From Candidatus Omnitrophota bacterium (GTDB lineage: Bacteria > Omnitrophota > Omnitrophia > Omnitrophales > Aquincolibacteriaceae), in assembly GCA_903884815.1 (NCBI GenBank), contig CAISGE010000004.1:5136-69135 (forward strand): a stretch of 64,000 bases of DNA. The letters are read 5' to 3'. Each line of letters starts with the position of its first letter. Positions within the stretch are counted from its first letter, which is position 1. This document shows, in pieces, positions 2,901 through 41,094 of the stretch. The notes beneath the pieces are model-generated. The model was not told where the DNA came from. It was given only the letters and a program-made list of their open reading frames with translations, and did no database searches. Both the position numbers and the translations under genes were made by a program.

Positions 2901-3051
2901 GATATTTATGTATCGGCAGGAAAGTCTATCCCCTTATAGGGACCATACCAAGAAAGGGCCACGCCTTATTAAGGCTATTAAGTGCGGGGGAGAACGTTCT
3001 GATCTTAATCGGCAGAGCGAAAACGGAAGCCTAACTCAGGCGATCAAACGA

Positions 3052-3441: not shown

Positions 3442-3691
3442 GTCCCGCTCCTTTACTTTTTATACTTTCGCATTTAGAGGAAATAATTCTATTCTCTTCG
3501 AATTGATTATCGGCTTGTTCTGTGATTAATTAATGCATTACCGCATCATCCAACGAAAAATTAACACATGGCTGTGAAATTAGCAAGGCCCTGAGGTGTT
3601 ATTTATTGCAAAAAGTCTGCTCGGAATAAAAGCCTCCGAACGACCCAAACAAGCGACCAAAAAGCGCCGCAACTCTTTATAATTAAAAGGG

Positions 3692-17873: not shown

Positions 17874-19067
17874 TTACTTGAGTGTGGCGAGCCATTCTTT
17901 CTCCAACTGAGCGGTCGAGATCAGGAGCACTTCCTCGATCGCCTGCTCGACGGGTTTCCCCTCTTTGATCTTGATGAGGATCTCTTTGATGCGGTACATC
18001 TGATATCGGTCGACCATGTAGCTGACCAGTTTAAAAACCTGCTGGTAAAAGAGCGCCACTTCAAGCGGGTCCATCTTTTCCACATCCAGATTTTCAGAAA
18101 GTAACCGGTTCATCGACATGAGGGTCTGCGTACGGATCGCCGCGTTAAATACCAGCAAGTCGACCGGCTTAATCTTGTTCTGCTCATACTGCGCCAGCCC
18201 TTCATGAAGCCAAGCAGGAGCCCGCCCGCCGCTCAGAGAAGCCACAAAGGCGTGTGTCATTTCGTGGGTCGCGGCCGAGCGCAAGTCCTGTTCCCGGAAT
18301 CCCTGTTTATAGGCCGGCAAACGGATCTTCCCGTCATACAGCCCTCCCACAAAGTCCTTCTGCCCCGTCACGTCATGGAACAGATCCCCCTCATAAAAAA
18401 GCACCGCCGTCTTGTGATTGAAGTATTGCCCGAAATCCTGAGAGATCTGGCGGTAGGTTTCCTGCAACATACTCTTCAACCAGGAACCCTCGTAGCCTTC
18501 CTCTCCCTTTTGGTATTTGATAATAAAATGCTCTTCGTCATAAGTGTCGAGGTTCTTTTCCACGGCGTTCTCTTTCTGGATCTTCTCGATCTTCTCACGA
18601 AGCCGCGTCGACGGGCTCACCAGATAGCTGCGTTTGTAATAATATTCCGCCTTCTCGAAATTCTGCTGAAGATTCTCGATCTCCCCAAGAAGTTCAAAAG
18701 CGAGAGCATTGCGCGGCTCAAGCGCGATCGACTCATTCAGTGCATCCCGCGCGAGCTCAAACTCATTCTTTTCAAAGAACTTCACGGCATCGTTATAAAG
18801 CTCGATCGCCATGGGGGTCATGGGGGCCTTGCCGTCCCGGGACGCGTAGAAGCGATCGATGTCGATCTTCTGCTGACGTTCCACGGACTCCTTGCCGTGA
18901 TCGTTATCGTTTGTTGCCGCGTGTGAGATAGCGCAAAGAGCAAAGCTCAAAGCGAAAAACGCAGGAACGCTCAGTAAAACGGGGAATGGGGAACGGGGAA
19001 CGAAAGAACATTTCCCCTGATCAATATTAGTCTGCATCTCGGGCACCATCTTTAGTCGTTGGTCCAT
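17874..19067 (-). CDS. secreted TPR protein with C-terminal MA-type zincin motif (HEMTH...EGLAQ)
   Basis: Signal peptide and TPR repeats (ALEPRNALAFELLGEI, EKAEYYYKRSY). The C-terminus has AATHEMTHAF...WLHEGLAQY, a HExxH plus E motif typical of the Peptidase_MA superfamily. The start is uncertain, at 19037-19067. Confidence 0.6.
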   Translation of the reverse strand: MDQRLKMVPEMQTNIDQGKCSFVPRSPFPVLLSVPAFFALSFALCAISHAATNDNDHGKESVERQQKIDIDRFYASRDGKAPMTPMAIELYNDAVKFFEKNEFELARDALNESIALEPRNALAFELLGEIENLQQNFEKAEYYYKRSYLVSPSTRLREKIEKIQKENAVEKNLDTYDEEHFIIKYQKGEEGYEGSWLKSMLQETYRQISQDFGQYFNHKTAVLFYEGDLFHDVTGQKDFVGGLYDGKIRLPAYKQGFREQDLRSAATHEMTHAFVASLSGGRAPAWLHEGLAQYEQNKIKPVDLLVFNAAIRTQTLMSMNRLLSENLDVEKMDPLEVALFYQQVFKLVSYMVDRYQMYRIKEILIKIKEGKPVEQAIEEVLLISTAQLEKEWLATLK

Positions 19068-20157
19068 CGTTCGGCCATCGCGACGCGCTTGCCGATCGAG
19101 GGATGATCGTAAAAAAACCATTCATACCACGCCGGGGGCTCCGGGTCCGCGAGATTCTGTTCACCGAGCTTTTTCATGCAAGTGATAAAAACATCCCGCG
19201 TCTCAAGGGCCCTCAGTGCGAAAAGATCCGCCGCCCGCTCACGCCTTCGCGAGTAACCGTTCATGAGCGGCGTCAGGATCAGATTCACGATATAAAAGAT
19301 AAGGAACAGGAGTGGCAAACCGGCAACATCGGACGCTGAAGCCAGCCCCACCTTCCCCGCCATGGCTCGAATCCCCCAAAAGCCCGCCGCGAACGCGACG
19401 AGCGAAGCCACAAGCCCGAACCCCAGCAGCCGCCAGACATCCTGGTGTTTGTAATGCCCCAATTCATGAGCCACCACCACCTCCACTTCCGGATGGGTGA
19501 AGTTCTGGATCAAGGTATCACTCAGAACGACACGCTTCGTCCGGCCAAGCCCCATAAACGCGGCATTCGCCTTCTTGGTCGTCTTGCTCAAATTAAGCGA
19601 ATAGACATTCCCGACCGGCATATCAAAGCGCGCGGCAAGAGCCAAAACCTTCGTCTCCAGGTCCTTGTCCTCAAGGCTACCATACTTGTAGAAAAGCGGA
19701 ACGATCAGAACCGGAAATACCTTGCCCAGAACATAGCTGACGAACGCGTAGGCCGCCCAGGCCCAAAGCCACCAATGGGACGGATCGGCGCGAATGATCC
19801 AATAAAGGCATTCCAGGAGAACGAGGGATAACCCGAATGAAAGAAGCGTCTTCTTCCCGAGATCCAAAAGCCACTGGCGGAAATTCTGATTCGAGAGACC
19901 GAACCGGTGCTCCAGCATGAAGCCGGAATAAAAAGAGAGCGGCAAGTCGAATATCAGAAAGAAAAGCGAGAACAGGACAAAATAGATCGCGACCACGCCC
20001 CAGTCGCCAGCACCCACGAGAGCAACGGCATTCTGCCGCATCCCGAACGTCCATCCGCTCGCGATCAATATTCCAAGCAGCGCCGGCGTCAGAACGAGCT
20101 GGAACAGGCTGAGCCTTCGATGGATGAGCTGGTATTCACGAGCTTTATTTTCCATAG
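19052..20157 (-). CDS. M48 family zinc metalloprotease (HtpX/Ste24-like), multi-TM
   Basis: VVAHELGHYKHQD HExxH in the context of several TM helices. The start is set at MENKAREY (ATG about 20155). The 407-aa track ORF has an N-extension. Confidence 0.85.
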
Positions 20158-20215
20158 ACGGCTCTTTCCATGTCACACCTATTTGAACAACCGAATGTAC
20201 GTAGCCGATCGTAAG

Positions 20216-20308
20216 TAATAGGTAGTATGTAGTAGGTAGAAAATCCGTCTTTCGTTTCCCGTTACAACCTACCATCTACTACCTATCACCTACCACATAC
20301 CACCTACC
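20216..20308. repeat. tacc/ggta-rich imperfect inverted repeat in the 285-bp region upstream of the M48 protease gene
   Basis: Left arm TAGGTAGTATGTAGTAGGTAG. The right arm CTACCATCTACTACCTATCACCTACCACATACCACCTACC is its imperfect complement. The mismatches become G-U pairs in the minus-sense RNA. Confidence 0.4.
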
Positions 20309-21948: not shown

Positions 21949-22044
21949 TTTAGCGGCAGGTGCGCCAAATAGAAACAGCTTTTTACCCCCATCTCGCAGG
22001 TTCCCGGTATCAGAGTTGGTTTGCGAAAACGCTTCAACAATTGG

Positions 22045-25000
22045 CTAGGCGGCCTGAAGTACCTGAAGGAACGCGTGGATCGCGTCCCCGATCTGGTTCA
22101 AACGGCTCTGCAAGCTTTCGTCGGTAGCGGTAATACGTTTTCCGGGCTCAAACCCCATTTCCATGATCGTCAATTCGCTGAGTTCTTTGCCGGGGACAAG
22201 CGCCTGAGACAAGCCCACGGCTCCCAATCGAGACGCCATACGAAGGTCAGCATTCGTCGCATCATAAGCCTCCTCCACCACGACGCCTTTGGCTGTATTC
22301 AAATTATCCGTCAGCTTTCGCATGATGGCGCGTGCGCCCAACAAGACATAACTGCCCCCGCTGGCATCCGTGTTTAATTTATCGTTCAGCTTTTGCGTGG
22401 TCGTCAGGAAGACGGAAAATCTCTTTTCAACATCCTTCCTGAGCATCCCGCGCTTTTCAGCCGCCGCGATAACCCTGTTCTTCAAAGCCCGAACCTGGGC
22501 CGGCGAGGGACCTTGTTTGCCAAGATCGGTGACCACCGGCAACTTGTAACGCATCTCCGGATTCGGGTTTAACATAAAGATCGCAACGATCGTTCCCACC
22601 CACGCATCCAGTTCCTTTTCGTCCGTAGGCAACGCGTCCACCAATTCAAAGACCCGACCGGCCCCCTGGCCCGCCAGGTGGCTGAAAGCCTTAGGATTGG
22701 ATCTTTTGAAAGCGCTCACGATATCAGGCGCCTCTTCCCCACCTGCGGCAGCAAGCAATGACTCCAGCTTTCGGGCGGCTTCTTCTGGCGAATCCTGACT
22801 CAACGCCATGATCCCGCCCACCAGGAACGCCACCAACACGATGGCCTCCGGCATCTTCGCGTCCACACTCAGAGCCGCACGGACCTCGCTCATTTTTTTC
22901 TTCCCCAACAGCGCCCGCAGCTCGGGCGGCAAGGCCTTCAAGATATTCGCTCCGGCATCCACGGTCTTAGTACCGCGAGCCTCAGGTTCTTTCTGATATT
23001 GCTCCGCAAAACCCGTCACCTTCAGGGCCGCCGCGATCGCCTTCACCGTAGGCCTCGCCTCCGACCGCATCTCCCCTTCTTTTGCCTCTGTCCGGACTGC
23101 GGGAGCCGTTGGGGATTGCCCCATGACCGGCAGCACGGCCGCCTCCACCGCCGCACCCCTCGCTTGGTCAAGAGCCGCTTCCATAGCATCAACCGCGTTA
23201 GCTACAGAAGACTCCTCCCTCGCCGCACGGAAGCTTCCAGCAACCAGGGCTTTGGCATCCGCGCTGGGATTCTGGGTCAATTCCTTGACCATTTTCGAAA
23301 CCGCCAGAGACGCAATGCCGAGTCCCACATTCGCGTATTCTTTTCCAGTTTCTGCCTTAAGAAACTCACAAACCGCCTGACCCGCCTCCAGGGTCATTTC
23401 AAACCTTTCCGGCTGTTCCAGCGCCTCTATGGCGAATGTGAGCGCCACAACATAAACACTATCAGGATCATAGATCCTTCTGGCGAAATCGTTAATGAAA
23501 CCGTTCAATCTCTCAAGCCTCTCCTTCCCCAACCCAAGAGCGTCCGCATTGCCGCTACGCAGATACCGCTCAATGGCGTTTTCCCCTCCTGGGATATGAG
23601 CAGTCAGGGCTGAAAGAAAGCGCCTTTCACGAGGGTGAGTTTGCGTCCCATCCTGCGCTTTCCATTCAGCATACTCGGCAGATTTGAGAGGATCCGTCTT
23701 TTCGATCTTTTCACCTATTTCGGCCGTTTTTTGGATAGCCTCCCCGCTGACCCTGGCCTCCTCCACGACAAGAGAAAGAGACCGCTGGTTCTCCGGAATT
23801 TCCGACGTCCTCGCGGAACGATAATCTTTGTGGGTCAATTCGTGGATCACCGTTTCCAGATCCTCGAACTGATGGAACTTCGTCCGGACCAGGATCACAC
23901 TCTTGCCTCCCCCAAGATCGATATGCGAGCCTTCATGCGTCGCATCCGAATACAGGGAGTGAGATAGTTCTGAATCATCCGCGACAAAAATAATCTCGTC
24001 GGCATCCACCGAAATACCGGCATCAGCCAGCAGAGCAAATATTTTCTTGGAATGTTCCTGAACAAGGCTCCCCCAACGCCCGTTTTTTACGATATCGCGT
24101 ATCACTTCACGAACGGAAGCCGCGTTATTTTCCGACAAACCTTTCATCACCATTCCGGCACTCCCTTGAGTAGAACGCTCATCCTCCAGGGCCTGTTCAT
24201 AACTGCGGACCGCCCCTTCCAAACGTGCCAAGGCGGCCCCGGGTAGCGCAGCCTCAGCCTCCTGCCCAGAGTTCGACCCAACGATATCCCTGAGGACACT
24301 CAACAAACCCTCTGTCGCCCTCGATGAATCGGCCTCTCGCCGGCTTAGATTCGTCGCAAAGATCTTCCAAAAAACTTCTCTGTCGATATTCTCTCTCTCC
24401 GGCAGAGCCGCGTTTCTTTCCAATAGCTCCGAAACAGAAGGCCGCTCCAAACGCGCCCGGATCGCTCCCATATCCGGCGAATACAGGGCCACCGATCCCG
24501 GCGACATATGCAAAACCGAATCCTCCCAAGCGTTCGTGACAACCGCCTCGCTTGGCCGCTCTCCCGTTAATATTGCTAGCGCGGCGGCCGACTGCGATTG
24601 AATAGGAGTAGAATCCTTCTTCGCCCCCGCTTTTTGCTGATTCACCCAACGGATCAAAAGTGCAACATGAGACAGGCCCATCTTTAAGCTGCGGATGTAA
24701 TTGCTGATGATCCTGATACACTCATCCCGGTGATTTACAAAAAAATCGAGCGCTTCCTTTTGAGAAAGAGACAAGTCTCTCCATTGAGAAGATTTCTCAT
24801 GAAGTACGGCATCGATCGCTTTTCCAATATTGAGGTCCCGCGCATTCCATTCCTCGAGGTCGGTCGCGACATTGAGCTTGGCAGGGTCCACATCCCGGAG
24901 CCTAAACGCCATATCCAGAAGAAAGCGATCCGCCATGGCTGAGATCATTGTCTTTGTGAAGGTAGACAATCTCACTTCAGAACGATCCGACACGCTGCTG

Positions 25001-28000
25001 GACCGCACCTCCGCCACCGGCTTCGCTCCCGCCCGCAGATCGCCGCGGGTACTCACTGGCGAAATAACCGGCATTGTGGACGTCTGTCCGACTACCCCAG
25101 CCAGCAACTCCCGCGTCTCGGAGCGGTCGGGCTCGTTGGGAATCCCGAGAAATGTTGCGCTTTCATCAAACGCAGACTGAACCTGATCAAATGGAATTTT
25201 TAGAAAGCCGGCCAGCTTCTCCATTTTTTCGGCATCGAATCCGGGCCGGAGGGACATCAGCCGGATCAATTCCCACTTCGAACTTGGGGTAAGAAATTCA
25301 AGAGGAATGGCTTTGCATTTTTCCTTTTCAAAGATCAGATCGCGAGATGCCACACCATACCGCCGGAAGCCGCGCTCGCTCGTTTGCTTCTCCGGGTCGA
25401 TTTTGACGCTTTCAAAATCCTTGATATACAGCTTTGCCGTTTCCATATCTGGAAAATTAAAGATCAGCAGGCCTTCTTCCTGCCAGGAAAGCGCTTCCTC
25501 GATCGCAATCGTAACCATCCCGCGGCTCATTTCTCCGGTTGCCGCCAGATCCCCCAGCGGATCACGATCGTATTTTTTCACGCCATGAAACCAGATCCTT
25601 TTAAGTCTCGCGTCGCTGAACTCATATCCCGTCTTCACTCGGCTGATATCGCCATTTTTGAGCCCCGCTTCCAATTCGCTCGGCAAAAGAGGGACACCAT
25701 CAACATTCACCAATGCAGCTCCGTCTTTCATCTTCAGGTCGGGATAAGTTCTCGTCTCGGAACGGATTTGATCGGTGGTTTCAAGCGTGCGGCGTTCTTG
25801 CCGCTTACCCTCGGCGGGTTGGACGGGCGCCTCATGACCTGCGCCCTCTGGCGTAACACCAGACTTTTCCACGAACTTCTTCGTCTCAGCCTTGATCGTT
25901 TCTGTCATCACTTTCGCCACATCCGCACCTCTCCCGATAAAATTTGGCGACAAGGCCGCATCCACGAGCGTCGGAACGACATCCTTCTCGGCGAAAGCTT
26001 TAAATACCCTCTCCACCTCTGCTTTCAACCCCGCCGCATTAAACGGATCTTTTCCGTCTTTGTTCTTCATGGAAAAACCGTCCATATCGAAATCAAGGAT
26101 CAAGGGTTTTCCAGGATCGGCTTGCGGCAATTCTTTCAAGTACACAATGTGAACTTTGATCGGCCTGAGGTGGCTCAGCGTATATTTCTCTAAGATTCCT
26201 GGATAGCGCTTCCCCGGATCCTCCTCCGGATGCATATAGACCTGCTTATCGCTGGGATCGGTTTTTGACGTAAGAAGCCCAACATAATAGGTACCCCCTT
26301 TCAACACAGCGGGAGCAGCTCCGGGATACTCCGGAAGGATCCAATATATCTCGCTGATCATATGCTGAAGTACCGCAGGAGCGATAAACCCCTCGATGCT
26401 AAAGCTTGGCTTGGACATATCCGGCTTATCCGGATCCTTCACATTTTCAAGGTCCCCCAGATCAAAGTGAGAGTCCCAGTGATAAAGCACCGCTTCGTGA
26501 ATCCCAGCTGCCGCCCATGCAAGGTAAGCGCTATTATGATTCTGCATCATATACACGGGAGCTTTCCCCATATACCCCGTCAGGTGGATACCATCTTTTT
26601 CATGTTTTGTGACGCTGGGAACATAATCTGGCTCGAGTTGTTGGCCATGCAGTGAAATGGAGGCCGCTAACGATAATCCCGCAAGCCCCGCTCGCCGGAG
26701 CAACGCTTTCCGCACCTCGGAGCGATCGGTAGCCGCGGTGGAGTTATTTGACCGGGACTCGGAACGGCCTCCGGGCGCAACAAAATCGTGAAAATATCTA
26801 TCTTTCGGCTCGTTAAAAAAGAATCCCGATCGGGCGGCAAACAGATAGTGACGTTTTACAAAATCCTTGAGCGCCGCGGAAGCATTATCATCTCCTTGTA
26901 TTTCCCCGAAGAATTCCTCGCCGTTGTCTTCTTCATGGACCCTCATGACAACATCCATGAACTCATCGGCGGAAAGGCTCCAATTTTTCTCGTTTATAGG
27001 TTTTAGCTCAGAATTTTGCGGCAGCCTCGCTGTTGACCTGCTCGGCCCGCTCCCCAACATCTGTCCTCCGGCAACAAAGGGTGTTCTACGAGGTATGCCA
27101 TCGAGCTGTCCCCCTCCTACAGGAGTAAACGACTCCATGATCTCCCAGGCCGCCCGCGCCACGGGAAGATCGCCGTTATCGGCAAGCCGGAGCACCAATT
27201 CGTTATCCACAACCCGCATCACGACATTACTCCTCCGTGGATTTCCGTACATCCTGCCGGTCCCTTTAAACGAGCTGATCATGAAGGCAATAGCACGCGC
27301 ATCTAGATATTTCAGTAGTCCGGATAATTCTTCCCTCAAGCGGGATCGCTGGTCCAACATTCCATCATCGATCTGAGGGCCGCCATTGAGAGACAAGAGT
27401 CCCATCGCCCTCAGACCATCCATGTGCTCCATCAACGCATCCTCGGATAAAGCCTCAATGTCCGTTCCATCCCACTTTGACCGGGTTAATTCTTCGAGGA
27501 TCTTCACAGGCTCATCCATAGGGATATCGCGCTCAAGCATCTTCACGGCGGGCCTCTCCTTTTTAGCAGGAACCGGCGGTAACACAACCGGCTGCTCCGA
27601 TGTTCCCACGAGAGGTCCTGGCTGATCGATCCCGGCATGAGACGCAAATGATTCCGACAATGCTTGGGCTCGATCTGCGGGTTGCAGGGATAATTCGTCG
27701 AGAAAATCCACTAAGTGGAATCCCAATGGGGGATGCCCTGCGTTATCCGCCATATAGCTGTCTCTATAACGCACGGCATATTGATTCATGAGGTTTTCAT
27801 GATGCTGCCCCGTAAAAAACAAGGCCAACTCACTTTTGATCCTGTCCGGCGATTTCAATATCCCGTAATCCACAAGAGCCATAATAAAATCAAACCGCTC
27901 CTGCGGGGACATCGAAAGCCCCCTATAACCCGGAAACCATCCTTCCATATATTCCCGCATGTCTTCATTCTGGGTGAGAGTCCCCGTCGTGACGCCGTCG

Positions 28001-31000
28001 CCCGCCGAAGCCTTGTTCAGCGCAACAAGGCTTCGCGCCAGAACACCCCGTTGCTGCATGAGGCCGTCTGACGCCCTGCAGCTTTTATCAACTTCCAGTA
28101 AGAGCGCGATCCTGGAGGGCAGTCCTTGCGTCTTATCTTCCCTCATGAGTAGATCGACCACAGCCTGAAAGATCTCGGGATCCGAAGCACCTTCTTTGAG
28201 AAATTGCGTAAGACGCTCATCGCGCAGCGGATTCCCTTCGCGCTGAGTTTCAACCCAAAACCTGAGTTTGCGTATACCCTCCCGCCGCACATCCGCCTCT
28301 GCCGATCGCAGCTCATGAAGAATATTCCCCATAAGATCAAATCCCAACGGATTTTTCTGTTGAGGGATGGGCGGAAACATATCCTCCCGTGACTGGCCGG
28401 GGTTGGCGGCATCCATGACCTTACGGACCTTCTCCGCATGCGCCGAGTTCCCCCGATCATCATTAAATCTCTTATTCGTATCATTAAACAAAGCCTCATC
28501 CGCACGGATCAATGCCAACGCCTGATTCGCCACATAAGAAGCTCTTGCAAGACCCTTCCGAACTTCCTCGCTTGGATGAGCGCCATATTGGTCCGCGCTG
28601 AGCTTCATAAAACGTTCGATATGTTTTTTAATTTCAAGCAAGGAGTGAAAGTTCTTAAGGTCCGGATCATAATAATCGTGAAGGGCTCGAAGCGCCCCGA
28701 TCTCACCTTTCAGATAATAATTAAAAACGCGGTGAACGAGCTCTTCGAGCTTTTCGAGCGGCATGGCGGCGGGAGAATCGTAGAGGATATGATGTTCCCG
28801 CGCAAAGTTCGCGAACGCCCGCTGATTATTAAGGTCTTCCCCGTCAAGGTCGTACCAGCCACCGCGGGGGGCTTTATACGTTTCGAAGCCATCGTCCTTA
28901 GCATCCGCACCAGCCGCCTTTATCTTCGGAGCAAAATCCATCGGCATCACACCTTTATCAAGAAGTGTGGCTGCCACCGCGTCGCTCACGGTTTGAGTCG
29001 GATCCTCCGAAAGCCTCCGCACCTCGATCCCGCTCGATGCGGGAAGAGCGGCCTCCGGCAGGAAAGTTTCGTTACCGAGGATCACGGATCCGGGAGGAAG
29101 CTTCAATGAACCGATGATTACCGTATCCATCGGATCGATCACGGCCAATTGGTCTAAAACAGCCGCTAGAGGAATCAAAACGACATATTTCGCACGGTAA
29201 AAAGGTGAGCGCTCGGGAAGAAGGGAACTTGTCACTGTTGAATTAAGACTGAAATGCAACGTCTCCCAGGCATGTGGCTGCAGAAAGTCCCCGTTGGGAG
29301 TCAGGACCTCTTCGGAAAAGAAACTTCTGGGATGGATAAATCCATCTTCTTCCGGATTTGCATCCGTCATGTGTACGAGATAGATCTGGGCGATATTCAG
29401 GGTTTCTCCGTCCCTTGAAATAGGAAACCCCTTTTCTTTCAGACTCGCCTTGGCGCGCTTCCACTTTTCCATAACAGCGCGAGACCACCCATGACTGAAC
29501 CGATTAGCGCCCTTGGACCGTGTCGAAGGCGCGCGTGCGGGCTTGGATGGGGCGGGCTTTGCGACAAAAGAGGAAGATGCCTCCGCAGGCATGCCCTTCC
29601 TGCGCCCATTCGTCACCAGTTTTTTCAGCTCTTCATAATCAGGTGATTTGAAATTCATCTGCTCGTCGAACGCGTGCTCCCGCAGCCCGGCGTAACTCCC
29701 CGCGTCAACCCTGTAGAACTCGGTCAGGATTTGAAAGAACTGCGCGATCGGAAGCTGCGCTTCCCTGGCAGCGGTCCTGACCTCCACAAAAGCATCCTCC
29801 AAGGCTTGGGCAATTTCAGCATCATCCCCCCGGATTCTGGCAGAATACGTCCGTTCAAGCATCCTTCCCAGAGGATCAAATGCGATGAGTGCGTTAGCAA
29901 GTTTCCGTTCTTCGGGAGTAAATTCAAAGAGATCATAGAGCTTGTTGTCTTGGATCAGCTGGAGCGACCTTTTATGCTGGAGGCTCTTATCTCCATCATC
30001 CTCCACCGCCGTCGGCTTCCCGACGTCGTGAATAGCAATCAATAAGCGGTAAAATCGCGGTGAAAAGTTATTGGGGAAGAACTCTTTTCGTTGCTCGAAT
30101 TCGTGAAGCACCTGGGCATCATGCTTTCGCAAACTCAGTTTCTGCACGACTCCTACGCTTCTCGGAAATTCATTTCGCAGCACCGGAACGCTTCGTGCCA
30201 AATATTCAAGAAATCGATCAATGCTGTCGCCATCCATCTTTGCCGAATTCGCCAAGTTCAAAGCATCTCTGACCCGCGTCTCAGAACGGCCGGCACCCGG
30301 CTCGGCGGGGCGAACTTCTGCGGCATTGGGCGGATTCAAGGATGGCCCCCGGCCCACCAAAAGCTCTCCGATCTTTAACAGTCCTGCAAAAAAGGCCGAC
30401 TTCAAGAATCTATTCACTTTTGCGCGGGCTGTGGTCAATCTCCCGGGCTGATCCCACTTGAAGATCAACTTTGCCGCGTCAAAAAGGAAGAAGATCGCAA
30501 CAGCAGTCATCCCACCCAAAAGGAAGAACGCGCCAGCATATTTGAGGGCCAGCGCAAAGCCCGCAAGGGTCCGCTCCTCCTTGGTAACGCCGCCCTTGAT
30601 CACCTGCTCAAACCAGGGCGTCTGCCAGGGTAACTCCAGCACATCCCAGAGCAACAAATAAGCGATGATCGCGACTTGACCGAGAGGCGAGGTCTCGACA
30701 GGGGCCTGACGCAGGACAGACGCGATAAGCTTCGCCACGTAAGGAAACGTGCTCAGATAAACGACCAGGTATTCAACCGCATAAAGAAATCCGGGATGCT
30801 TTAAAATCTCTCGAGCCCTCATCGACGCGATGTATCTCACTACCTGGATCATAATCAGTCCGGGAAGAAGTACTCTTTGAAATTGCTTCCAAAGGTTCGC
30901 CGGTGAAACCCATCGTGAACCAGACCGACTCAAACCAGCCTCCGCCGGCGTGGCGGAAGTTTCAGCTCCCTCTGTTTCGGGAGAGGAGGCGACCGAAGCC

Positions 31001-34000
31001 GATTTTTTGGGCGAATACTTTGCGGCAATCTTTATTGCAAGCTCCCCGATCTCACCAAGCGGTTTTTCATATAAGGGACCGGCCAATCTTGCCTGAGCCA
31101 AGGCCCACTGCTCCATTTTGGCAACTTCTTTCCGACTCGGATTTCTGTCTGCTCCAAGTTCGGAAAACTTTTTGATCGGCGGTAAGATCCGCTCAAGAAT
31201 ATCGCCGGCCAGGATCATTTGTCCGAGATCCAAGGACTCATGGCTCTCCATATACAGCCTCGCCACGAAATCCGCGGGATAAGAGGTGGCATACCTTTCT
31301 AAAAGCCATTTCCCGAAATCTTCCCCTTCAGAGTAGGTGCTGTAATGGGCCCCTCTCTCACGGTTAAAGTTTGCGTTAAAAGTTCCGTCGATAAGATCAA
31401 GATCTCCCGTCCAAGATTCCCCTCCCCCGGTTCCATAGAGAAAAGGCCTCCAAGACGCATGCAATTCCTTCGGAGTTTTCACAACGCTCTGCCCCGCGAC
31501 TTTTCCGGTCGGGGTGCCAGTCGCAAGCGTTTTAAATAACGCAGCCCCCAGGAACCTTCTGTCCCGAAAGGGTCCTTCTGTCGAACTCGCGCCGATCTGC
31601 AGGTCACTCAACAAATGCGTGTACTCATGCCAAAAGACAGAAGCCCATGAATCAAAAGTCATCCCGTCCGTTTGGGACTGTATTTTCACTTCAAAACCCT
31701 CTGGACCTGGGAATTCAAACCCGTTCGGATGACGGATGAACACCCTTGCAAATGTCGTGGTAAGATCATCCGTCTGAAAAAGGATCGAAGTCGACCGCTT
31801 GAGGATTGTCGATGCCTCTGCGTTGTCCTTGCCGTCAATACCCGCCGCCTCGAGGTATTTCTTAATAAGGTAATCTGTCATGGCGGCCCAATAGCGCATG
31901 AGCAAAGGAAAATCCGCCGGAATATCCATTCCCCGTTCTCGTTTCAATTCCCTGAAACGCTTTTCCTCGCTCACGTAATGCGGGTATTTCGAAGCCTCGG
32001 CTTTCAATATCGGTAATGCCTCGTGATAGGGAATCCCCTTCTCCATCAACTGCCGTATTGTTTCGTTTATTCCGGCCATAAATCTTGCGTCTTCTAGAGA
32101 TAATCCGGTCGACCCCTTCTCGATTTCCATGGCGACATTTAACTCTCCCGCGCCCTTCAGCGGAGTCACCACCACACGCTCGATAATAGCCCTCACGGAC
32201 CAGAGCTGATCGGATTCCACCATCCAGCGATAAACCCGGTTTGACTTCATTGCTGAAAAGCACAGCACCCCTGCCAACGCGGGGGGAACGAGTATTCGGA
32301 CGAGCGGGGACCGCCGTAATCTTCGCCAAATATTTCGCCGCTGCTCCGCACGCGACTCTGAGGAGCGTGCAGGTTGGGCAACGTCAGTCGGGGTGCGGGT
32401 TTCGGAGCGGACATTTGGAATATTAATTTTCGCCGCATCAGCACCGCTCAGGTCCTCCACAGACAGCCAATCAGCCGATTTGATGGAACGGACCATTTTG
32501 AGCAATTCCAGAGAAGTCATGCCCGAAAAATTGAAGAGTTGCCCGCAGGAAGCCAGCAAATTAAAAACATCCATCACGTCATCTTTAACAGGAATACCCG
32601 CACGCTCCAGCTCGGCGATCACACCCAAAAATTTTCCGATCATCGACTTACCAGACGCAAGAACATTGCTAATCTTCACCTCGACATCCGGGTTCATCGA
32701 TGCCTGGCCTACAAGGAGAGCTCTAAGTTCTTTAACAGCCATTTTCCGGGCAATTCCCTTGCCAACCGGCAATTTCTGACCGATCAATAAGGCCTGCATC
32801 AGTGCCCACAGACTCTTACGGCTATCGATGCTAAGAGTCGACGCAGCGCCGAGATCGATAATGGAGATGCGGATCTTTCCCTCGGCCGTGCGAGACACAA
32901 AGATATTTCCCCTGTGCGGATCCGCATGATAAAACCCGCAAATAAACATCATCCGGAAGAACAAATGTCCAAGAATATGTTCAACCGCAACGGGATCAAT
33001 TCCCAGAGCGGCAACACCCGCGTCGTCGGTAAGTGGCACTCCCGGCGCTGTCCTTTCCCTCATGACTGAATTTTGGGCTATTTCGTGAGCGATCGGCACG
33101 TCAAATTCATAGCCCCGGAAAGCGTTCTCCGCGCCCGCCTGCACAACGCGGATCGCTTTGGCGAGTCTTTTTTGATTCTCACCCTCCAGATCAAAATCCA
33201 TCTCCTTCCGGATCCGGTCCTCCACTCGGTCCAGCATCTGCTTCGGGACATTGATCTTCAACTTGTCCCCCAGCATTGCCGCCACGCGCCGCATAAATGC
33301 AATCTCCTCCTCTATGCGCTGTTCCCCGTCCGGGCGTTTGATCTTCACGATTTCTCTGCTTCCGTCCTGAGTGAGCGCCTCGTCTACTGCCTTAACCGAC
33401 GCGTTCCTTTTTTTATTATGCAGCTCCTGAAAGACATCCGTAAAACTGCCGAAGACCCTGTCGGTCATTTCAAACTTATCCTCGATCGGCATTGGATTCG
33501 CGCCATCCTTTAATCTCTCGAGGCGCGCCCGGATCTCGGGCGTGATGTCCTTGTCATCGATAAGAGGGGAAGAGGAAAGAATCTGCCCGAGCTTGACCAT
33601 GGTGATCCCGAACGATTCGAAGACAAGCCCAACGACTTCAGCCTCTCTCTCTTCCCGGGAAAGTCCTGGATCAGCAATGCGTGACAGTCCCGCGCAAAGA
33701 GATAAAAGCACCTGCTCTTTTCTGTAAGGGTCGCCTGCCTCTATAAGAATATCGTATATCCCCTTATAGAGGTCCCGGCGTTCCTTTTCAGTGCCGGCTT
33801 CCCCCTTGGGGTAGGCGTAGTTGAAGATAGCGTCGAAAAGATCCGCCGCTGCGTGATTGGGATATTCCCGCACGTAGGGAAGTCCGTGCTTCGTGGACAT
33901 ATCACGTCGCGTCACCTTCGCGGTTTCAGCCAAGACGCCGTTCTTACCGTACAACAGTAGATCCAGCATGTCTTGCCGCAGGCTGGTTCCGATGCCTTTA

Positions 34001-37000
34001 TAGTGGCCTTCTTCTCCTCCACGGAAGAGTTCGCGTAGAAAATCGTAATTAACCTCAAAATCATGCTCAATCCTCAAGAGAAAGGCGGGCTTATTTTCCG
34101 TGACGCCCACCAACCACAAGATAAGATCTTTTTTAGATTCCGGAGCAAGCTCGGAAACGACCTGGAGCAGTATCTTTTCTTTGCCAAAAAGATTATCCCG
34201 AACCCCTTCTTTCCTGGTATTCCCTCGGAATTGAAGAAGATAAGACTGCACAATCTCCAGCATGCGGGGCGTTACAACCCTTTCATTCTGGATCGAGCGA
34301 AGCACATCGTCCCGAGTGTAGCTGAATTCCTTAAAATAGTTTTCGACGACGATCCTGACCTCCTCTGAAAAATCGCTAAAAAGATCCGGACGCATTTCAC
34401 GGTCAACTTCCAGTGCCAGGAGAGCCGATCGCTCGCGAACGCTAGAACTCTTGAAGTCGTTATCCAGCATCGCCCTCATATGAGTGATGAGACTGTCTTG
34501 TTGCTCGCGGGTCAATTTGTTCGCACGCATCGCGTCACGGATACCCCGGAACAGCTGTTCCATGAAGTAGTCTTTCGGTTCCGAGTTTTCGGCAAAAAAG
34601 GAACGGACCAAATCCCTCCGAGACTGCATGACCTCAACAATATCCTTAACCTCTGTCTCCGGCACTTCCGCCGACAAGTGAGAAGCAAGTATGTCCCGGA
34701 GGAGCATCGGAACTGCATACACGATCTGGGTGGCATGCCCGCCCGTATTCGTGAACTCAGCGGGAGTGTAGCGTTCCGTCACGCTGGAAGGAGCGAACTG
34801 ACCTGCATTATTTATATTGATCGCGCAATTTTCACTCTTGGAAATCCGAATGCGTTCATTGGCCTCCTCCATGGCAACGTCAAGCTGAAGCGACGGCATG
34901 ATAAGCGCCGCGGAACGGAGAATGGCTTGTTGCTGCCCCGCTGGAAGCGCACCTATTTTCTGGCGCACCCCCGCGATGTCAAAATAGTCGGCCATCGTGT
35001 CGTCCACGACCACTCCGTTTTTCCTGAGAACCATCTCCACAAACACAAGATAAAGAGCCATGTTCTTCATCATGCCGTCCGGAAGAACGGCGTTCAGCTC
35101 CGCCACCACCTCTTCGAAAGTGCGCCCAGCGGCTGAAATCGGAAGGCCATAATCGAGCAGGCGATTGAATATCTGACTCGGCAGTAAATTCTGCACAGTG
35201 CCGGGAGAAACATTTCTGATCAAATCTGAAGGAAGATACAGAAGCCACCTGTTTTGCCAATCGTGAGTTGAAAACGGGCCCAGATATGCCTGATCCGAAA
35301 TCTCAACATCAGGAGTATCCGAAAAGAATAGCCGGTCCACCCGGTATGGAACCTCCCCGATACGCCGGGACCGTCCGTGAGTATCAAATATTCCGTTGTC
35401 TCTGTATTTCCCTAGACGAAGGGCCAAAGCAATTCTCACCATGAATCCGTTCCATGTCCTTATGCGCCCGATAGCGCTTGGCTTCCAATCACCGGGCAAA
35501 TTTCTAATCATCCTGGAAAATGTCCCCCGCTTCGTCTGGACATCCCTCTGCGACAAAAGGTAGTTGTACAAAGCGGTCCGCTCGACAAGCGAAAACGGAA
35601 CATTGTGAACCGGGTCTGTTTTCTTAAATGAGCCGGAAGCCGCGGGATCTCCGTCGTCGATCAGTTTTATCTTCTTGAAATACTCGATGATCCCCTCATA
35701 GTCATTCGCGCCGAAGACGCCGCCCATTTCGTAGAAGAAGATAATTTTTCTGATCGGTAAGGCCAACTCTCCGGCATTTTCCACACCCGCGGCGGCTAGA
35801 GCGGAATCTATCCGATCGGATAATAATTCCTCGCTCAGACCATTCTCGCCAAGGATCATTTCATAGAGACGGCTATTCATGAGCAAAAGGTCCTCCTGTT
35901 GGAGGCTTCTCGCGTAGAGCCCCCTATCAAAGGCCCGGACGTCATAATTCCTGTCTGGATCCTGTTCATCTTCAAGCTTCCAACGCTCATTCAAGTCAGC
36001 GGCGTGGGTTGTAAGGGCATAGCGTAAAAGGTCTATTTCGCCCTCCGGCCCAAGGTGGTAATATTCCATGATCGTAGAAATGTAATCCCCGTATTTACCT
36101 TTAAACATCTCGAGAGCAAGCTGAACCGCTTCCACGGCGGTCGGCGCATTGATCGCCTTGAGCCACCTCAGCACAAATTCTCTATTTTCAATGACGGGGT
36201 TCGCCCCCCCATTAAAGCAAGTAGCATGAATAGGCAGATTTCTTTGTTCTTCCGCGCTTAACAGGCCCGTGGCAAGAAGAGCTAATAGATCCTCAACGGA
36301 GTCAATGGGGTGATCGGTTAAAAGCCTCAGGAACTGTTTACGGTCAGCATCGTTCAGCGTTGCGCCAGCGCTAAGCTTCTTTACCATGGCGCTCTCAACC
36401 AATCTCAAAATATCCCTGAATAAGAGCTCCCCGCCCAGAGGCTTCGCCTCATACTGGGCACGAACCTCAAGTTCCCGTTTTCTCTGATCGATCCGTCTGT
36501 AAAGATCCATCAACTGTTCGGGAGTGAGACTGTCCTGATTGCGTGCCAGATATTCCCGGACAACTGATTCGATGAATCTTATGTGGGAATCAAAAATCAC
36601 ACTTTTCAATTCCAGAAAACTCTTCTCCATATCCTCCCGTCCATGATCCTGGGCGGTCTTCTGCCGCGCAGCTCTGGACAAAGAAGGAACAGATTGGCTT
36701 TCAAAATTCAATATGTCCGGAGGCTGCGCTTCTAGCAGCCCGAGCAATGATTCGCCATTGACAGCACTCCCGGACTTTGTCAAAAATTCAGTGATTCTCG
36801 AAGCGAACTCTTCTGCGGAGGAATTCGAAGATAAAAATTTATCGACGGCATCTTCCAAGACGAATTTGCGTTGAACCTCATACGCAGAAACTTCATCGGG
36901 TGATAGCTTGGAACATAAAGTGCTCGCGCGACTTTTGTAGACGGCTTCGCTATCATCCACCCCGTTTTTCCTCTTCAGAATGTAGGCGAGAGCATAGAGT

Positions 37001-40000
37001 GTTTGAAGTTCTTCCATGGTTTCGGCACTGCTCATCAAATCGAGAATCATTTTGAGCGATGCCTTATCCCCGTAGTTGACAAAGCTCCCAGTTATGCGCT
37101 TCGACACAGCTTCCTCTTTAAGACCGCTTTCGCGCGTTCTCCTCCGTGATTGACCACCTAACTCCTTGGTAGCCAGCGTCGAAATATCACCTCGGGTGTC
37201 ATTAAAATGACGCCAATATCTCTTTTTCTGATTCTCCATATTCTTGAGGCGTCTCTCCACCGTATTGTGTTCCCCAAGCCACGAGTCTTTAAGATTATTC
37301 GCTTTCATATATTCCCGGATACACCTCATCGCCATGATCGCGCCCTGCATTGAATAACCAGCCGATTCCATAAAATCCAGCGCGTTATTGTCCGCATCCT
37401 CTTCGTCTGTAAACCGTACGGCACGACGCTTGAGGATCGAATTCAGCGGAGGATTCACCCCCAACCGTTGCTCTTCCTCATAGTCCGCCCAGCCCTGTTT
37501 GATATGCCCGGTCTCATGCGAAAGGATATAGGCAATCATCGCCCGCGACCCTGCAAGTTTTTGATCAGGCGGCAACTGAGCAACATAAGCTTCGATCAGC
37601 TTCAAAAACCCAAGCGAAATATAAACGCGATGATCACCGGGATAAACAAACGCGTCGGGTTCATTCTTGTCCATGAGATGAAGTTCAAATTGATCCGGAA
37701 CAAGTCCCACTTTTTGAGACCCGAGGATGTCCCTGAAAACAGTCTCGACTTCATTATAAATCCCTGAAAACTCTCCCGAATTTCTTCCGATCAACCCATC
37801 TTTCGCTAAAATCGCGCGCATTGCCGCGTTATTTTCTCCCTCGATCGCCGCGTCGATTGGAATCCGCCCTTTAACAGGCAAGGTCCGTGTCTCAGCACGG
37901 CCATTCAAATAATTCTCAATCGCTAGATCAAAATCAGCAGGTTCGGCTTCCAGAAAACGCACGACATTCCGGACAAAATCCCTTTTGATTTTATCCGTTG
38001 CATCCATTCCTCTCAAATGCTGAAAAACAGGCTTAGAACTCTCCCCAAGAACACCGCCCAGAAATCCCAGTAATTCCGCAGCATCTTTAAAGAACCTCCG
38101 TACGAGTTGCAGCTGCCCCAAAACCGTTGTGAAAGCTGAAATCAAGACTTCGTTAGAGTCGGTCGGCAGGTCGAACGCTTTAACCGGATCGATAAACACA
38201 AGATCAGGTGTGGCCCCTTTGGCCACCTCTTCTGGATTCCGAAGTAATACATCGTCGATGCCGTAATCATAAACGACGCCTACCGGAAATCCGGACTGGA
38301 ATTCAAACTGAACCTGAGACCATAACAGGTGAGCATCCGAAAGCAACTGTTCAAAGATCCTCTTCCGGATCCCGGGATCCTTATTCGATTTAATGAACGA
38401 TTCTAGAGTGACGCCGCTCTCCCATTCTGAAAGCTGCATATAAACTAGATCGGTGTCTACAAAATGCACTTGGGAATCGACCGATATCTCGCGGGCAACT
38501 TTGCGGGCAACTCTCGGATTGGAGACGATCTTCAGGTTCAATGCCTTATCCCGCTTAGCGGACTGCAAATTCAAATGACGCTCATCAGAAAATTTTATCG
38601 CAAGATCCCGGGATACCCCGCCGGCTTGAAAGGTCATACGATGAACGTGTCGACCGGAGCCTGAAAGAACGCCTGCGTGAACTGATATATGGATCACCTC
38701 GTTCACAGGAATACCCACATCGGCCAAATAATGATTTAATTCGGATTCATGCTCATGAAGGAAAGGAAATAGCCTTTGTTCGAACAGCTGATGACCATCC
38801 TGAAATCCAGCTTGATTTCCGGCCGCGCTCCACTCAAAAATCAATCCACCTTTCGTCAGCTTCTCACCCTTCTGCCCTGACGCGAGATCTTTGGTACTTA
38901 CAGGCTCCGTAGTAGCAATGGGCTCTTCAGTCGGCCGGACTTTGGAGCGTGGTTTTTGGCGGCCTTCGGAGCGGGCGAGTGAGACGGTGACGGAATATTT
39001 GGATCCGTCTCCGATGGGCGTGAAATGAACGGCATAGAACTTTCCGTTCTTCGTGAAGGCATCGCTTGTCATAACATACCCGTTCTCACCTTCGGGTTCG
39101 ACATTCAACGGGTGTTCGAATTCCTTGGCGACAAAATCGTTATAGAATTTTATCGTTGCTTCAAGATTTTTGGGATCGCCTCCTAGTAGCTTTAAAAACC
39201 AGCTCTCGAGATGTCTTTCCAGCGCCTCGATATCGACCCCTTGATCAGACAAGACTCCTGACCGCTGCAGCACGCTTGGTAATTCCAGGGTCGCGAGGTC
39301 GAACAAGCTGGACTGCGTCTGGAGCATATTCTGCCGGTACATCTTGTCGTTGCTTTTCTCGGTAAGACGCGGGGTGAGAATACCGTAACTGGTCTGATGT
39401 TCCCGGAGGAGGTCCGTGATCCCGTCCGTGTGAAAACCGCCGGTGACGAGAATGGCTTTGGACACCGCTCCCTTGGTCATGACGTCGTTGATCTTTTCGT
39501 AAAACACATTTTCACGTTTATGCGCGGCTTCGTAAAAACTGTAGGCCGCCGCTTGGGCGCCTGTCACTTCCGAGCGGAATTTGTCATTCACTTTCTTGGT
39601 CTCGAAATTCGAAAGCGGCAGCCCGTACTCTTTGCTGAGCGCCGTGCCGATCACTTTAAGTCGCGCCACCATCGCGTCCATGGACAGTGAGTCTGCATTT
39701 TCCGTCATTCTGAAGCCTGCGGCCGAAGAATCTCCGCCAAGATCCTTCGCTTCGTTCAGGGTGGCAGGGGTTTTGACTAATCCTCGTTTCTGCTCCACCT
39801 CCTGCCATTCCTTGCGCGGAAGCTCGAGGTTGAGGAGCTTGCGAATGAGCTCTTCATCACGGAACAGCTGCACGAGTTCCTTCTGCCGCGGCGACACAGC
39901 CTGGGTGTCGAGAATGCGCGTGAAAACGGCCTTGATCTCCTCAAATAGGCCTTTCGGATCAAGTTCGTTTTTTAAGATGAGATAACCGGCATAAGTGCTG

Positions 40001-41094: not shown

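Follow-up and report, generated by a model that had tools for sequence, protein, structure and literature searches.

A 6349-residue Omnitrophota protein with a conserved head and tail, variable enzyme modules and a recurrent R-[S/A]-E-x-R motif: a possible cassette-type polyprotein

We have analysed a 64,000-nt stretch of a Candidatus Omnitrophota genome (assembly GCA_903884815.1, contig CAISGE010000004.1, positions 5,136 to 69,135 of the forward strand), referred to below as the window, and in particular one open reading frame (ORF) of 19,050 nt on its minus strand, which starts with ATG and encodes a protein of 6349 amino acids (aa). Upstream of the gene lie GcvPA, GcvPB, LipB and UvrD; downstream follow a 1-acyl-glycerol-phosphate-type acyltransferase, an EEP-family protein, an M48 (Ste24/HtpX-like) peptidase, a Peptidase_MA_2/TPR protein, a ParB_N-like protein and BatD. 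The protein has a Sec-type signal peptide, a conserved head of about 600 aa (the N-domain) and a conserved tail of about 330 aa (the C-domain), which together we call the chassis, and between head and tail it carries 8-10 unrelated modules, which we call the cargo. These are an M48-like zincin, an ABC1 kinase, a membrane module with an HEYTH motif, an HD-like module, a UPF0489 arginase-like module and several orphans, and each is preceded by a linker ending in the pentapeptide R-[S/A]-E-x-R, the tag. An earlier note, made from the letters of this DNA, had described a polyprotein-like string of unrelated modules, and the presence of M48-like, ABC1, UPF0489 and orphan modules on one chain agrees with that description. 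The ORF and its chassis are laid out as follows.

22045-41094, minus strand: whole ORF, 6349 aa plus stop codon (22045-22047)
41020-41094, minus strand: predicted Sec-type signal peptide, aa 1-25 (n-region MTKTTQK, h-region IISLVTLACFVMT, c-region QSISA, then N; hydrophobic aa 8-24)
39175-41019, minus strand: conserved N-domain, aa 26-640, probable TIKI/TraB/Ere/ChaN-like alpha/beta core split by a helical insertion of about 350 aa
40867-40869 (H76), 40783-40785 (E104) and 39430-39441 (G552-G-F-H555), minus strand: catalytic-type residues of the N-domain, which also include R527
38974-39174, minus strand: small variable sub-domain and linker behind the N-domain, aa 641-707, partly common to the family members P0008, P0024 and others
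22048-23052, minus strand: conserved C-domain, aa 6015-6349, with a Rossmann-like alpha/beta core, a hydrophobic helix (aa 6081-6099) and a terminal amphipathic helix

The five alternative frames of the ORF stretch contain 127-325 stops each, with a longest open run of 329 codons. A codon log-likelihood model was trained on 17 flanking genes and applied to 62 segments of 600 nt each; since the ORF frame scored best in 62/62, the ORF is coding throughout its length with the codon usage of the genome, and it is a single real ORF as the earlier note had supposed. Its mean codon score was 0.157, compared with 0.217 for the training genes (training minimum 0.124). Measured in segments of 1500 nt, the GC content of third codon positions (GC3) was 0.69 in the first 1,500 nt, which hold the signal peptide and most of the N-domain, 0.50-0.61 in the cargo in the middle of the gene, and 0.63 in the flanks. 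The lower GC3 of the cargo suggests that it is of different origin or under weaker codon selection. The protein is non-repetitive: self-BLASTP at E<=10 returned the self-match alone, a direct-repeat search of the ORF gave only 31-mers at chance level, and Tandem Repeats Finder reported a single 30-nt micro-repeat. The latter consists of 2.1 tandem copies of the 14-nt unit GCGTTGTGCGTTGC at positions 40620-40649 of the window, inside a length-variable N-domain loop (aa ~149-158) modelled with low confidence.

Far from being a one-off, the protein is one of the longer members of a very large family of paralogues, and this family, with its conserved head (N-domain) and tail (C-domain) and variable enzyme modules, is undescribed in the literature searched. 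In a word-index search the first 1100 aa matched 29 proteins of 650-1920 aa; the similarity was limited to the first ~620 aa (39-61% identity), and all source names among the matches were Candidatus Omnitrophota, bar one distant Auribacterota protein. This exception, P0029 from Ca. Theseobacter exili, is a 654-aa homologue that contains the N-domain only (21% identity, E 3e-11), and given that Auribacterota is a neighbouring PVC phylum, the head domain may be older than the cassette architecture. An exhaustive HMMER search of 1.84 billion cluster representatives with aa 1-640 yielded 6491 representatives with an E-value cut-off of 1e-3, 3545 with 1e-10 and 662 with 1e-30. The 150 best matches were between about 250 and 7818 aa long, a dozen of them longer than 5.5 thousand aa (kaa); with 6349 aa our protein is in the upper range of the family and is no outlier. 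We take the family to comprise more than 3,500 cluster representatives with lengths of 0.9 to 7.8 kaa, and these are essentially all Omnitrophota proteins. Over the signal peptide and N-domain it is 38-69% identical to family members, and the invariant H, E, R and GGFH are present.

A scan of GTDB with one genome per species found 232 relatives, from which we kept 79 loci, all from Omnitrophota or unlabelled metagenome-assembled genomes (MAGs). Genomes often hold several paralogues, and tandem pairs are frequent. At L012, L015, L029, L054, L057 and L078 the upstream gene ends in ...SSAA, ...AFSA or similar and the next member follows directly; such an arrangement could permit cargo exchange by recombination. 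Members of about 1000 aa are N-domain and C-domain alone, complete members end in the C-domain, and everything between head and tail is variable. Compared with 161 family proteins, the only cargo shared by the 6349-aa protein was one 29%-identical HD-like module. Among 2.9 million viral contigs there was a single relative of the N-domain, a distant one (L080, IMGVR_UViG_3300045144_000334, positions 1828-3096, 23% identity), which is either a misclassified contig or a real transfer. The Omnitrophota origin that the earlier note had offered as speculation is well founded: apart from the Auribacterota protein every named homologue, together with 79 syntenic or related loci from MAGs of this phylum, points there, and in the closest genome, L001, UvrD is 80% and the M48 peptidase 83% identical to those of the window.

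The most informative feature, which the earlier note did not mention, is the tag. The 6349-aa protein carries eleven copies, the Ala variant included, which split it into head, 8-10 modules and tail.

38959-38973, minus strand: tag 1, RSEGR, aa 708-712
37885-37899, minus strand: tag 2, RAETR (Ala variant), aa 1066-1070
32395-32409, minus strand: tag 3, RSETR, aa 2896-2900
32338-32352, minus strand: tag 4, RAEQR, aa 2915-2919
30274-30288, minus strand: tag 5, RSETR, aa 3603-3607
26752-26766, minus strand: tag 6, RSESR, aa 4777-4781
26710-26724, minus strand: tag 7, RSEVR, aa 4791-4795
25750-25764, minus strand: tag 8, RSETR, aa 5111-5115
25111-25125, minus strand: tag 9, RSETR, aa 5324-5328
24970-24984, minus strand: tag 10, RSEVR, aa 5371-5375
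23053-23067, minus strand: tag 11, RSEAR, directly ahead of the C-domain, aa 6010-6014

RSExR occurs nine times in this protein against ~0.2 expected from shuffles, and in no frame does another real ORF of the window contain it. When gapped 5-mers were counted without bias in the post-N-domain parts of 217 non-redundant family proteins (508 kaa at full length), RSE.R occurred 665 times where 8.4 were expected, a 79-fold excess, and RAE.R 215 times where 12 were expected (17-fold); RPE.R was enriched 5.5-fold and no other gapped 5-mer rose above ~5-fold. In the family ORFs of the 79 loci the motif has a density of 1.66 per 1000 aa. A further 48 occurrences lay outside the called family ORFs, all of them in other long plus-strand ORFs adjoining a family gene; the identifiable ORFs among these are tandem family genes or fragments, and ordinary housekeeping neighbours account for none. 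The codons of the tag vary between copies, so selection acts on it at the protein level, and a signal in the DNA itself, for instance a recombination site or an internal start, was rejected on the same ground. Its logo is [A/S/G]-R-S-E-[V/A/M/L/S]-R, the x being mostly Thr in the 6349-aa protein, and its flanks carry essentially no information. Flanks of this kind are as expected for a short linear motif and do not fit part of a longer repeated linker. We also rejected phosphorylation or glycosylation of the tag Ser: because the Ala and Pro variants are enriched too, recognition or cleavage would be favoured over modification of the Ser.

The position of the tag relative to the folded units follows a regular pattern. 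The first copy stands just behind the N-domain (median position 682), the last at a median of 296 aa from the C-terminus, and the median spacing is 235 aa. Over the 40 residues ahead of a tag the bulky hydrophobic fraction falls slowly from 0.33 to 0.24, and it recovers within 10-15 residues behind it; this slow fall and fast recovery indicate that the tag closes a linker right before the next folded unit. Of the cargo homology blocks shared between paralogues (n=214), 27% begin no more than 15 aa behind a tag and 30% finish no more than 15 aa ahead of one; for random positions the figure is 7%. Similarly, 20% of 401 transmembrane (TM)-like cargo segments start within 20 aa after a tag, while 6% would do so at random. 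Many of these post-tag helices resemble N-terminal signal peptides or anchors, and several have AxA-type ends and look cleavable. Two examples in the 6349-aa protein are RAEQR-RNIWRRLRRSPLVRILVPPALAGVLCFSAM at 2915 and RSEVR-KALLRRAGLAGLSLAASISLHGQ at 4791. Taken as a sequence pattern, R-[S/A]-E-x-R is most likely a recognition site for an endopeptidase.

Long family members that lack R[SAP]ExR carry a different element, [AGS]xSLG, with 39 occurrences of A.SLG where 1.7 were expected. We found it in P0115, P0119, P0125, P0131, P0140, P0142, P0143 and P0153 and at loci L073 and L077. N-domain clades without R[SAP]ExR have 1-2.4 xSLG per 1000 aa, whereas the clade of the 6349-aa protein has 2.8 R[SAP]ExR and 0.1 xSLG. 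In the SLG clades the first tag is again right behind the N-domain, at positions ~602-621, and the catalytic-type residues are kept in the N-domains of both tag clades. Such co-variation of tag type with N-domain clade is the pattern that co-evolution of an enzyme and its site would be expected to leave. Linkers of a close relative, P0001 (aa ~680-710 and ~1110-1135), contain GSLGG and, at a distance of about 15 aa, R[QP]EAR, which means that both tag types can coexist in one linker.

What do the modules between the tags consist of? Pfam recognises just three domains across the 6349 aa: a partial Peptidase_M48, ABC1 and UPF0489. The features of the cargo, in the order of the chain, are the following.

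32410-38958, minus strand: first cargo block, aa 713-2895, mostly orphan, with the M48-like and ABC1 modules recognised by Pfam (aa 714-2500 without homologue)
37492-37752, minus strand: Peptidase_M48-like zincin segment, aa 1115-1201, HETGH at 1193 (PF01435, E 8e-7, 29.5 bits against a cut-off of 20.3)
32779-33516, minus strand: ABC1/UbiB-type atypical kinase domain, aa 2527-2772 (PF03109, E 1.2e-30; TIGR01982, E 1.7e-36; PDB 5yjz, E 5.9e-9)
32248-32304, minus strand: hydrophobic helix right behind tag 4, aa 2931-2949, with RRNIWRRLRR before it (signal-anchor-like by hydrophobicity)
31615-31629, minus strand: HEYTH zincin-type motif, aa 3156-3160 (motif only; no Pfam, NCBIfam or PDB match)
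30352-30894, minus strand: cluster of about 4-5 hydrophobic helices, aa 3401-3581 (by hydrophobicity)
29629-30240, minus strand: module with an unconfirmed HD-like 'IHDVGKP' box, aa 3619-3822 (29% identity to a module of P0031)
26641-26709, minus strand: KALLRRAGLAGLSLAASISLHGQ, putative internal Sec/Tat-like signal sequence right behind tag 7, aa 4796-4818 (read from the sequence)
26062-26562, minus strand: UPF0489/peptide-arginase-like module (arginase/deacetylase fold), aa 4845-5011 (PF12640, E 1.6e-6, 29.1 bits against a cut-off of 27)
23830-23937, minus strand: HExxH motifs HEGSH and HELTH, spaced by 31 aa within an orphan module, aa 5720-5755 (motif only; aa 4796-6009 without homologue)

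The ABC1/UbiB-type kinase of the earlier note is confirmed as an ABC1 domain: its Pfam match scores 106.9 bits against a cut-off of 22.9 and covers profile positions 1-235 of 244. The UbiB equivalog cut-offs are not reached (TIGR01982, 125.7 against 487.55 bits; NF003404, 78.3 against 667 bits), and by these scores the module is a domain relative and not UbiB itself. The UPF0489 match spans aa 4847-4921, and the NCBIfam model of the peptide arginase FlmR/OhkR, NF052474, matches aa 4845-5011 (E 5.8e-7; PDB 8brp, E 0.006). PDB sequence searches with the cargo yielded ABC1 proteins and one peptide arginase, nothing more. With the zincins the earlier note was partly right: it had counted three HExxH motifs, and there are four, at 1193, 3156, 5720 and 5751, where by our estimate ~0.17 would be expected from composition. 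HETGH at 1193 lies within the Peptidase_M48 match, which scores above the gathering cut-off and covers only profile positions 6-79 of 186, around the motif; the other three are outside any recognised family. HExxH modules are 5.8-fold enriched in family cargo; as they occur in only 25 of 217 members, it is unlikely that embedded zincins are a universal processing enzyme. The HD hydrolase which the note had proposed from the string LLIAIHDVGKP did not hold up. Its module had no Pfam match at E<=1 and no PDB match at E<=10, the string 'HDVGKP' being all that recalls an HD phosphohydrolase, and its only relative is the module in the one family member listed above.

Hydrophobic helices are found at aa 8-24, 2931-2949, in the cluster 3401-3581 and at 6081-6099, in line with the mid-protein hydrophobic block of the earlier note. 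Its remark that large regions have no recognisable family also stands: for aa 714-2500 and aa 4796-6009 a word-index-dependent search of 5.8 billion clustered proteins returned no homologue at E<=1e-3, and aa 2901-3600 had no relative among JGI metagenome contigs. Pfam and NCBIfam scans gave none of the condensation, ketosynthase, acyltransferase, adenylation or carrier-protein domains of nonribosomal peptide or polyketide synthases. PADLOC returned no defence-system match for the protein, and on this ground an anti-phage defence system was rejected.

The signal peptide, MTKTTQK-IISLVTLACFVMT-QSISA with a predicted cut before NP, is the sole strongly hydrophobic N-terminal segment; AlphaFold2 models a helix at residues 4-23, and the [VAS]-x-[AG] pattern of its end is retained among homologues, so that the Sec signal read by the earlier note is a well-supported prediction. 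The AlphaFold2 model of aa 1-690, built on an alignment of 27 sequences, has a predicted local distance difference test score (pLDDT) of 77.9 and a predicted template modelling score of 0.70; the pLDDT of aa 641-707 is low to moderate. In the model an alpha/beta core formed by residues ~50-180 and ~545-575 is interrupted by the helical insertion, which distinguishes this domain from the TIKI/TraB/PrgY/Ere/ChaN superfamily. For the insertion itself (aa ~184-540), Foldseek gave only non-significant matches (E>0.3), to the alpha-pore-forming toxins ClyA, MakE and AhlB and to other long helical bundles. All 143 aligned N-domains have H76, E104 and R527, and 141 of them have GGFH555. TIKI superfamily proteins have a His-Glu catalytic pair in common (H85/E113 in Bcr135; H3902/E3930, with H4030, in RRSP) and among them are site-specific endopeptidases (Tiki, RRSP) as well as esterases and one haem-binding protein (PMC6254334). 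The 28 residues between H76 and E104 equal the spacing in both Bcr135 and RRSP (PMC6254334), the equivalence of the residues being taken from this spacing and not from a residue-level superposition. From the 2His/2Glu set of RRSP the N-domain has H76, E104 and H555 (in GGFH), with Asn or Asp in place of the first Glu. One of the 27 relatives weakly matches PF04187 (ChaN/Tiki family; E 0.019). Against this assignment, Foldseek found no significant match in the PDB for the N-domain model, hidden Markov model profiles of 27 and of 55 N-domains matched no TIKI-family PDB sequence, and the 6349-aa protein had no match to PF01963, PF05139 or PF04187 at E<=1. On balance a TIKI-type fold is probable, and residue conservation predicts that the N-domain is likely to be an enzyme.

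The C-domain is far more diverged. Its identity to the C-domains of P0030, P0031 and P0032 is 27-35%; among syntenic orthologues it does not exceed 31% and is detectable by BLAST in only two, compared with 38-63% for the N-domain. A fold search with the C-domain gave generic Rossmann-like matches from unrelated families only. The protein ends in ...LQVLQAA, which fits the family C-terminus [AST][AS]A-COOH; a terminal amphipathic helix with this end is seen in ~45 family members and corresponds to positions 22048-22110 of the window (the last ~20 aa). We presume a resemblance of this helix and its end to C-terminal recognition signals of the ssrA/Prc type or to type-1 secretion signals.

The gene occupies a conserved place in the genome. 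The order GcvP–LipB–UvrD–X–acyltransferase–EEP–M48–MA_2/TPR–BatD, in which X is the family gene, recurs in Omnitrophota, with UvrD directly upstream at at least 22 loci of the phylum. In the UvrD–X–acyltransferase slot the family protein has 923, 1005, 1083, 1125, 2110, 2202, 2582, 3823 or, here, 6349 aa. In L001 it has 2582 aa, no cargo in common with ours, and an ART-PolyVal ADP-ribosyltransferase domain, which is typical of polyvalent conflict proteins. The earlier note's statement that the gene is not obviously a recent acquisition is thus true of the locus and the chassis, the slot being syntenic in at least 22 genomes, and not of the cargo, with none in common with the L001 orthologue and a GC3 of 0.50-0.61. 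A second paralogue slot, also in the core genome, lies between ThrRS–PheS–PheT–MgsA–STAS/PilZ and LPG-synthase (LPG_synthase_TM)–AccC; it was seen in the group of loci L020-L032, for example L021 (1-10000) and L024 (17866-21348). No secretion, small immunity-like or mobile-element genes adjoin either slot, and the neighbours are housekeeping genes. Around the ORF itself we note one presumed regulatory region.

41095-41310, minus strand: AT-rich upstream intergenic region of 216 bp, presumed to be the promoter region

The sole sigma-70-like match in these 216 bp was no better than chance. The 96 nt (21949-22044) between the ORF and the downstream acyltransferase gene contain no terminator-like site, so the two genes may be co-transcribed. 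No tRNA or Rfam RNA element was found in the window. At 17874-20275 on the minus strand the window holds an M48 peptidase with a Ste24-type N-terminal TM domain and a Peptidase_MA_2+TPR protein, which stand downstream of the slot in 6-9 genomes; it is possible that both are trans-acting processing proteases, or else that they are a mere case of conserved gene order.

Our overall picture of the protein is a cassette-type polyprotein that is probably processed at its tags, and to this we would give a little less than an even chance. One polypeptide would be made and its N-terminal signal would engage the Sec pathway; cutting of the exposed tags would then give separate soluble and membrane-anchored enzymes, and many released units would bear their own signal or anchor helix right behind the tag. 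The cargo would be an accessory set with fast turnover, whose modules probably act at the cell envelope or else on a host or prey cell, and the chassis would also have a function of its own. Could the head itself read the tags? The leading candidate for the tag-reading enzyme would be the family's own N-domain, given that TIKI-fold proteins include site-specific endopeptidases and that the tag type changes with the N-domain clade; the alternative would be a separate protease of the organism. More tentatively, the tags may be a proteolytic 'punctuation code' (R-[S/A]-E-x-R here, [AG]xSLG in the sister clades) read by the TIKI-fold head of the same protein, enzyme and site co-evolving. If this were so, these would be self-processing cellular polyproteins in which one Sec-targeted unit gives 2-15 separately targeted enzymes, and in which cassettes are added or swapped between the chassis domains.

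Several observations weigh against this picture of processing at the tags. It is drawn from sequence statistics alone. With esterases and haem binders in the superfamily, a TIKI fold does not imply a protease. Chassis-only members with zero or one tag keep the catalytic-type residues, and the N-domain would therefore have a role beyond cutting its own cargo. A lineage-specific protease working in trans would explain the co-variation of tag and clade equally well, and we saw no genome that combines both tag types. The topology predictions contradict each other: if the signal is cleaved, the exported part would be aa 26-2930, including the ATP-dependent ABC1 kinase, whereas the positive charges on the N-terminal side of helix 2931-2949 form a positive-inside pattern that opposes such export. 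Finally, the databases searched hold no counterpart of the cargo in another assembly, so that no independent assembly serves as a check.

It may be, instead, that the chain is never cut and forms a membrane-tethered multi-enzyme scaffold, with its internal helices in the inner membrane and the tag as a hinge, a partner docking site or a module N-cap, which is the main rival reading and which we regard as possible but less probable. Long Omnitrophota proteins are predicted to have a signal peptide with TM helices or TM helices only, with roughly one TM helix for every few hundred residues (Nielsen & Lui 2026), and the ~6-7 hydrophobic helices of the 6349-aa protein would suit such a scaffold; the post-tag helices could be start-transfer segments of one multi-spanning chain, and the chassis-only members indicate that the N-domain is needed for more than processing. 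However, two invariant Arg and an invariant Glu between unconserved flanks, together with the switch of motif in sister clades, are features seen more typically in a site that an enzyme recognises than in a passive hinge, and several post-tag helices, with their AxA-type ends, look like cleavable signal peptides. Rather unlikely, in our opinion, is a delivered effector or toxin polyprotein, the use proposed by the earlier note, in which, much as with MARTX toxins or the polyvalent proteins of phages and plasmids, the chassis would be there for export and for entry into a host or prey cell and the modules would act, and might also be released, in the target cytoplasm; this idea overlaps with that of processing. 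Modules such as the ABC1 kinase need cytoplasm-type cofactors, the syntenic orthologue P0032 has the ART-PolyVal domain, HExxH is enriched in the cargo as zincins are in polyvalent proteins, and the turnover of cargo is like that of polymorphic toxins. In the literature consulted, Omnitrophota are thought to be host-dependent or predatory. The C-terminal helix ending in ...SA might be a secretion signal similar to those of type-1 systems. Yet there were no RTX or glycine-rich repeats, no C80 cysteine protease domain, no toxin family match and no PADLOC match, neither paralogue locus has immunity-like small genes or secretion genes beside it among its housekeeping neighbours, the family is nearly absent from the viral contigs, and many modules have their own membrane anchors, which suit the envelope of the producer better than injection.

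That the ORF is an artefact of assembly or annotation (a chimeric contig, genes fused by error or a decaying ORF) seems to us highly improbable. The cargo has no counterpart in any database searched and its GC3 is somewhat below that of the flanks, but 6349 codons stay open where the other frames are full of stops, host-like codon usage extends over all 62 segments, the N- and C-domains stand in the correct order and in the correct syntenic slot, the tags are at family-typical positions, and members of 5-7.8 kaa occur in many independent assemblies. A repetitive surface adhesin of the RTX, Bap or Ig-like type, for which only the size and the signal peptide speak, can be considered refuted, as the earlier note had already argued: the repeat searches found no repeats in protein or DNA, and Pfam gave no adhesin, Ig, cadherin or RTX match.

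Very long multi-enzyme proteins with a signal peptide and TM helices are a published hallmark of Omnitrophota, described as Archaeovorins (West-Roberts et al. 2023, bioRxiv 10.1101/2023.11.21.568195) and as class 1 'multi-enzyme metabolic clusters' (Nielsen & Lui 2026, bioRxiv 10.64898/2026.06.07.730766). West-Roberts et al. pose the question of cleavage and state that the cleavage points are unknown (10.1101/2023.11.21.568195). Our protein shares with the giants of both preprints the phylum, the signal peptide and scattered TM helices, the unrelated enzyme domains, the sequence dark to Pfam and the question of cleavage; at 6.3 kaa it is shorter than those proteins, which have at least 10-30 kaa, and the SecA_DEAD, C39, S8, dockerin and glycosyl-hydrolase content of the giants was not found here by Pfam. 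Archaeovorin/Dockerin-type proteins are defined by more than 30,000 aa, a SecA_DEAD-like domain, many TM helices and glycosyl-transferase/hydrolase or dockerin domains, a description from which the 6349-aa protein departs. The class 1 clusters (chains of 10 kaa or more that are tiled by many different Pfam families, no single one dominating) are similar in spirit in their architecture, with a signal peptide, TM helices and no repeats, and our protein differs from them with its 6.3 kaa and three Pfam families. Neither preprint mentions an N/C chassis, a linker motif, a polyprotein or cleavage points of this kind, and no paper in the literature searched combines 'Omnitrophota' with 'polyprotein'.

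Similar architectures are known from elsewhere. MARTX toxins, known from Vibrio and its relatives, likewise have conserved N- and C-terminal parts flanking an array of unrelated effector domains that varies between strains, which are freed by linker cleavage, and their effector RRSP has the TIKI fold proposed here for the N-domain; there it is cargo, here it would be the conserved head. The glycine-rich RTX-type repeats at the MARTX ends are absent here by Pfam and the repeat searches, and the autoprocessing cysteine protease domain (C80) has no Pfam match. That protease domain cuts Leu-directed linker sites, unlike the R-[S/A]-E-x-R tag, and substrates of type-1 secretion normally lack an N-terminal Sec signal, unlike the protein described here. 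Polyproteins of viruses such as the Flaviviridae have junctions made of short basic motifs followed by small residues and internal signal sequences, which are cut by their own protease and the host signal peptidase. The present protein resembles them in having many functional units in one ORF, junction motifs and internal signal sequences; it differs in being encoded by a cellular chromosomal gene and in that its candidate protease would be TIKI-like and not chymotrypsin-like. Polymorphic toxin loci (Rhs, CdiA) have a conserved 5' part and a highly variable 3' part. The family here has in common with them a conserved 5' part and variable remainder, tandem copies and rapid replacement between close genomes; its variable part, however, lies between two conserved domains and not at the C-terminal tip, and it showed neither immunity genes nor repeats of the Rhs/YD or filamentous haemagglutinin kind. 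Polyvalent proteins, with 2-15 unrelated enzymatic domains per chain and frequent zincin-like peptidases proposed to process it, are encoded on phages and conjugative elements and are injected along with the DNA (Iyer et al. 2017, PMC5512222). Several unrelated enzymatic domains, zincin-like peptidases among them, and the ART-PolyVal domain of P0032 are common ground with these, whereas our family sits at conserved core-genome loci, is nearly absent from viral contigs and has a signal peptide and a fixed chassis.

Multi-enzyme giants of Omnitrophota were thus already known; new are the chassis of this family and its tag, which are absent from the literature searched, and the value of the finding lies in these rather than in the size of a single ORF. 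Omnitrophota hold the longest predicted proteins known, and whether such a protein works as one chain or as cut pieces is the main question about them. With members of 1-8 kaa, a defined chassis, a sharp tag between modules and sister clades with another tag as a natural control, the present family is a tractable one, and its tags offer a principled way to divide such proteins into units for structure prediction. If it is true that the same code punctuates the Omnitrophota giants of 10-150 kaa, it would provide the map of cleavage points that was noted as lacking in earlier work. A core-genome locus that serves as an in-frame landing pad for orphan enzyme modules, with products from 923 to 6349 aa at one syntenic slot, is also relevant to the growth of giant genes and to the question of where 'dark' protein sequence comes from.

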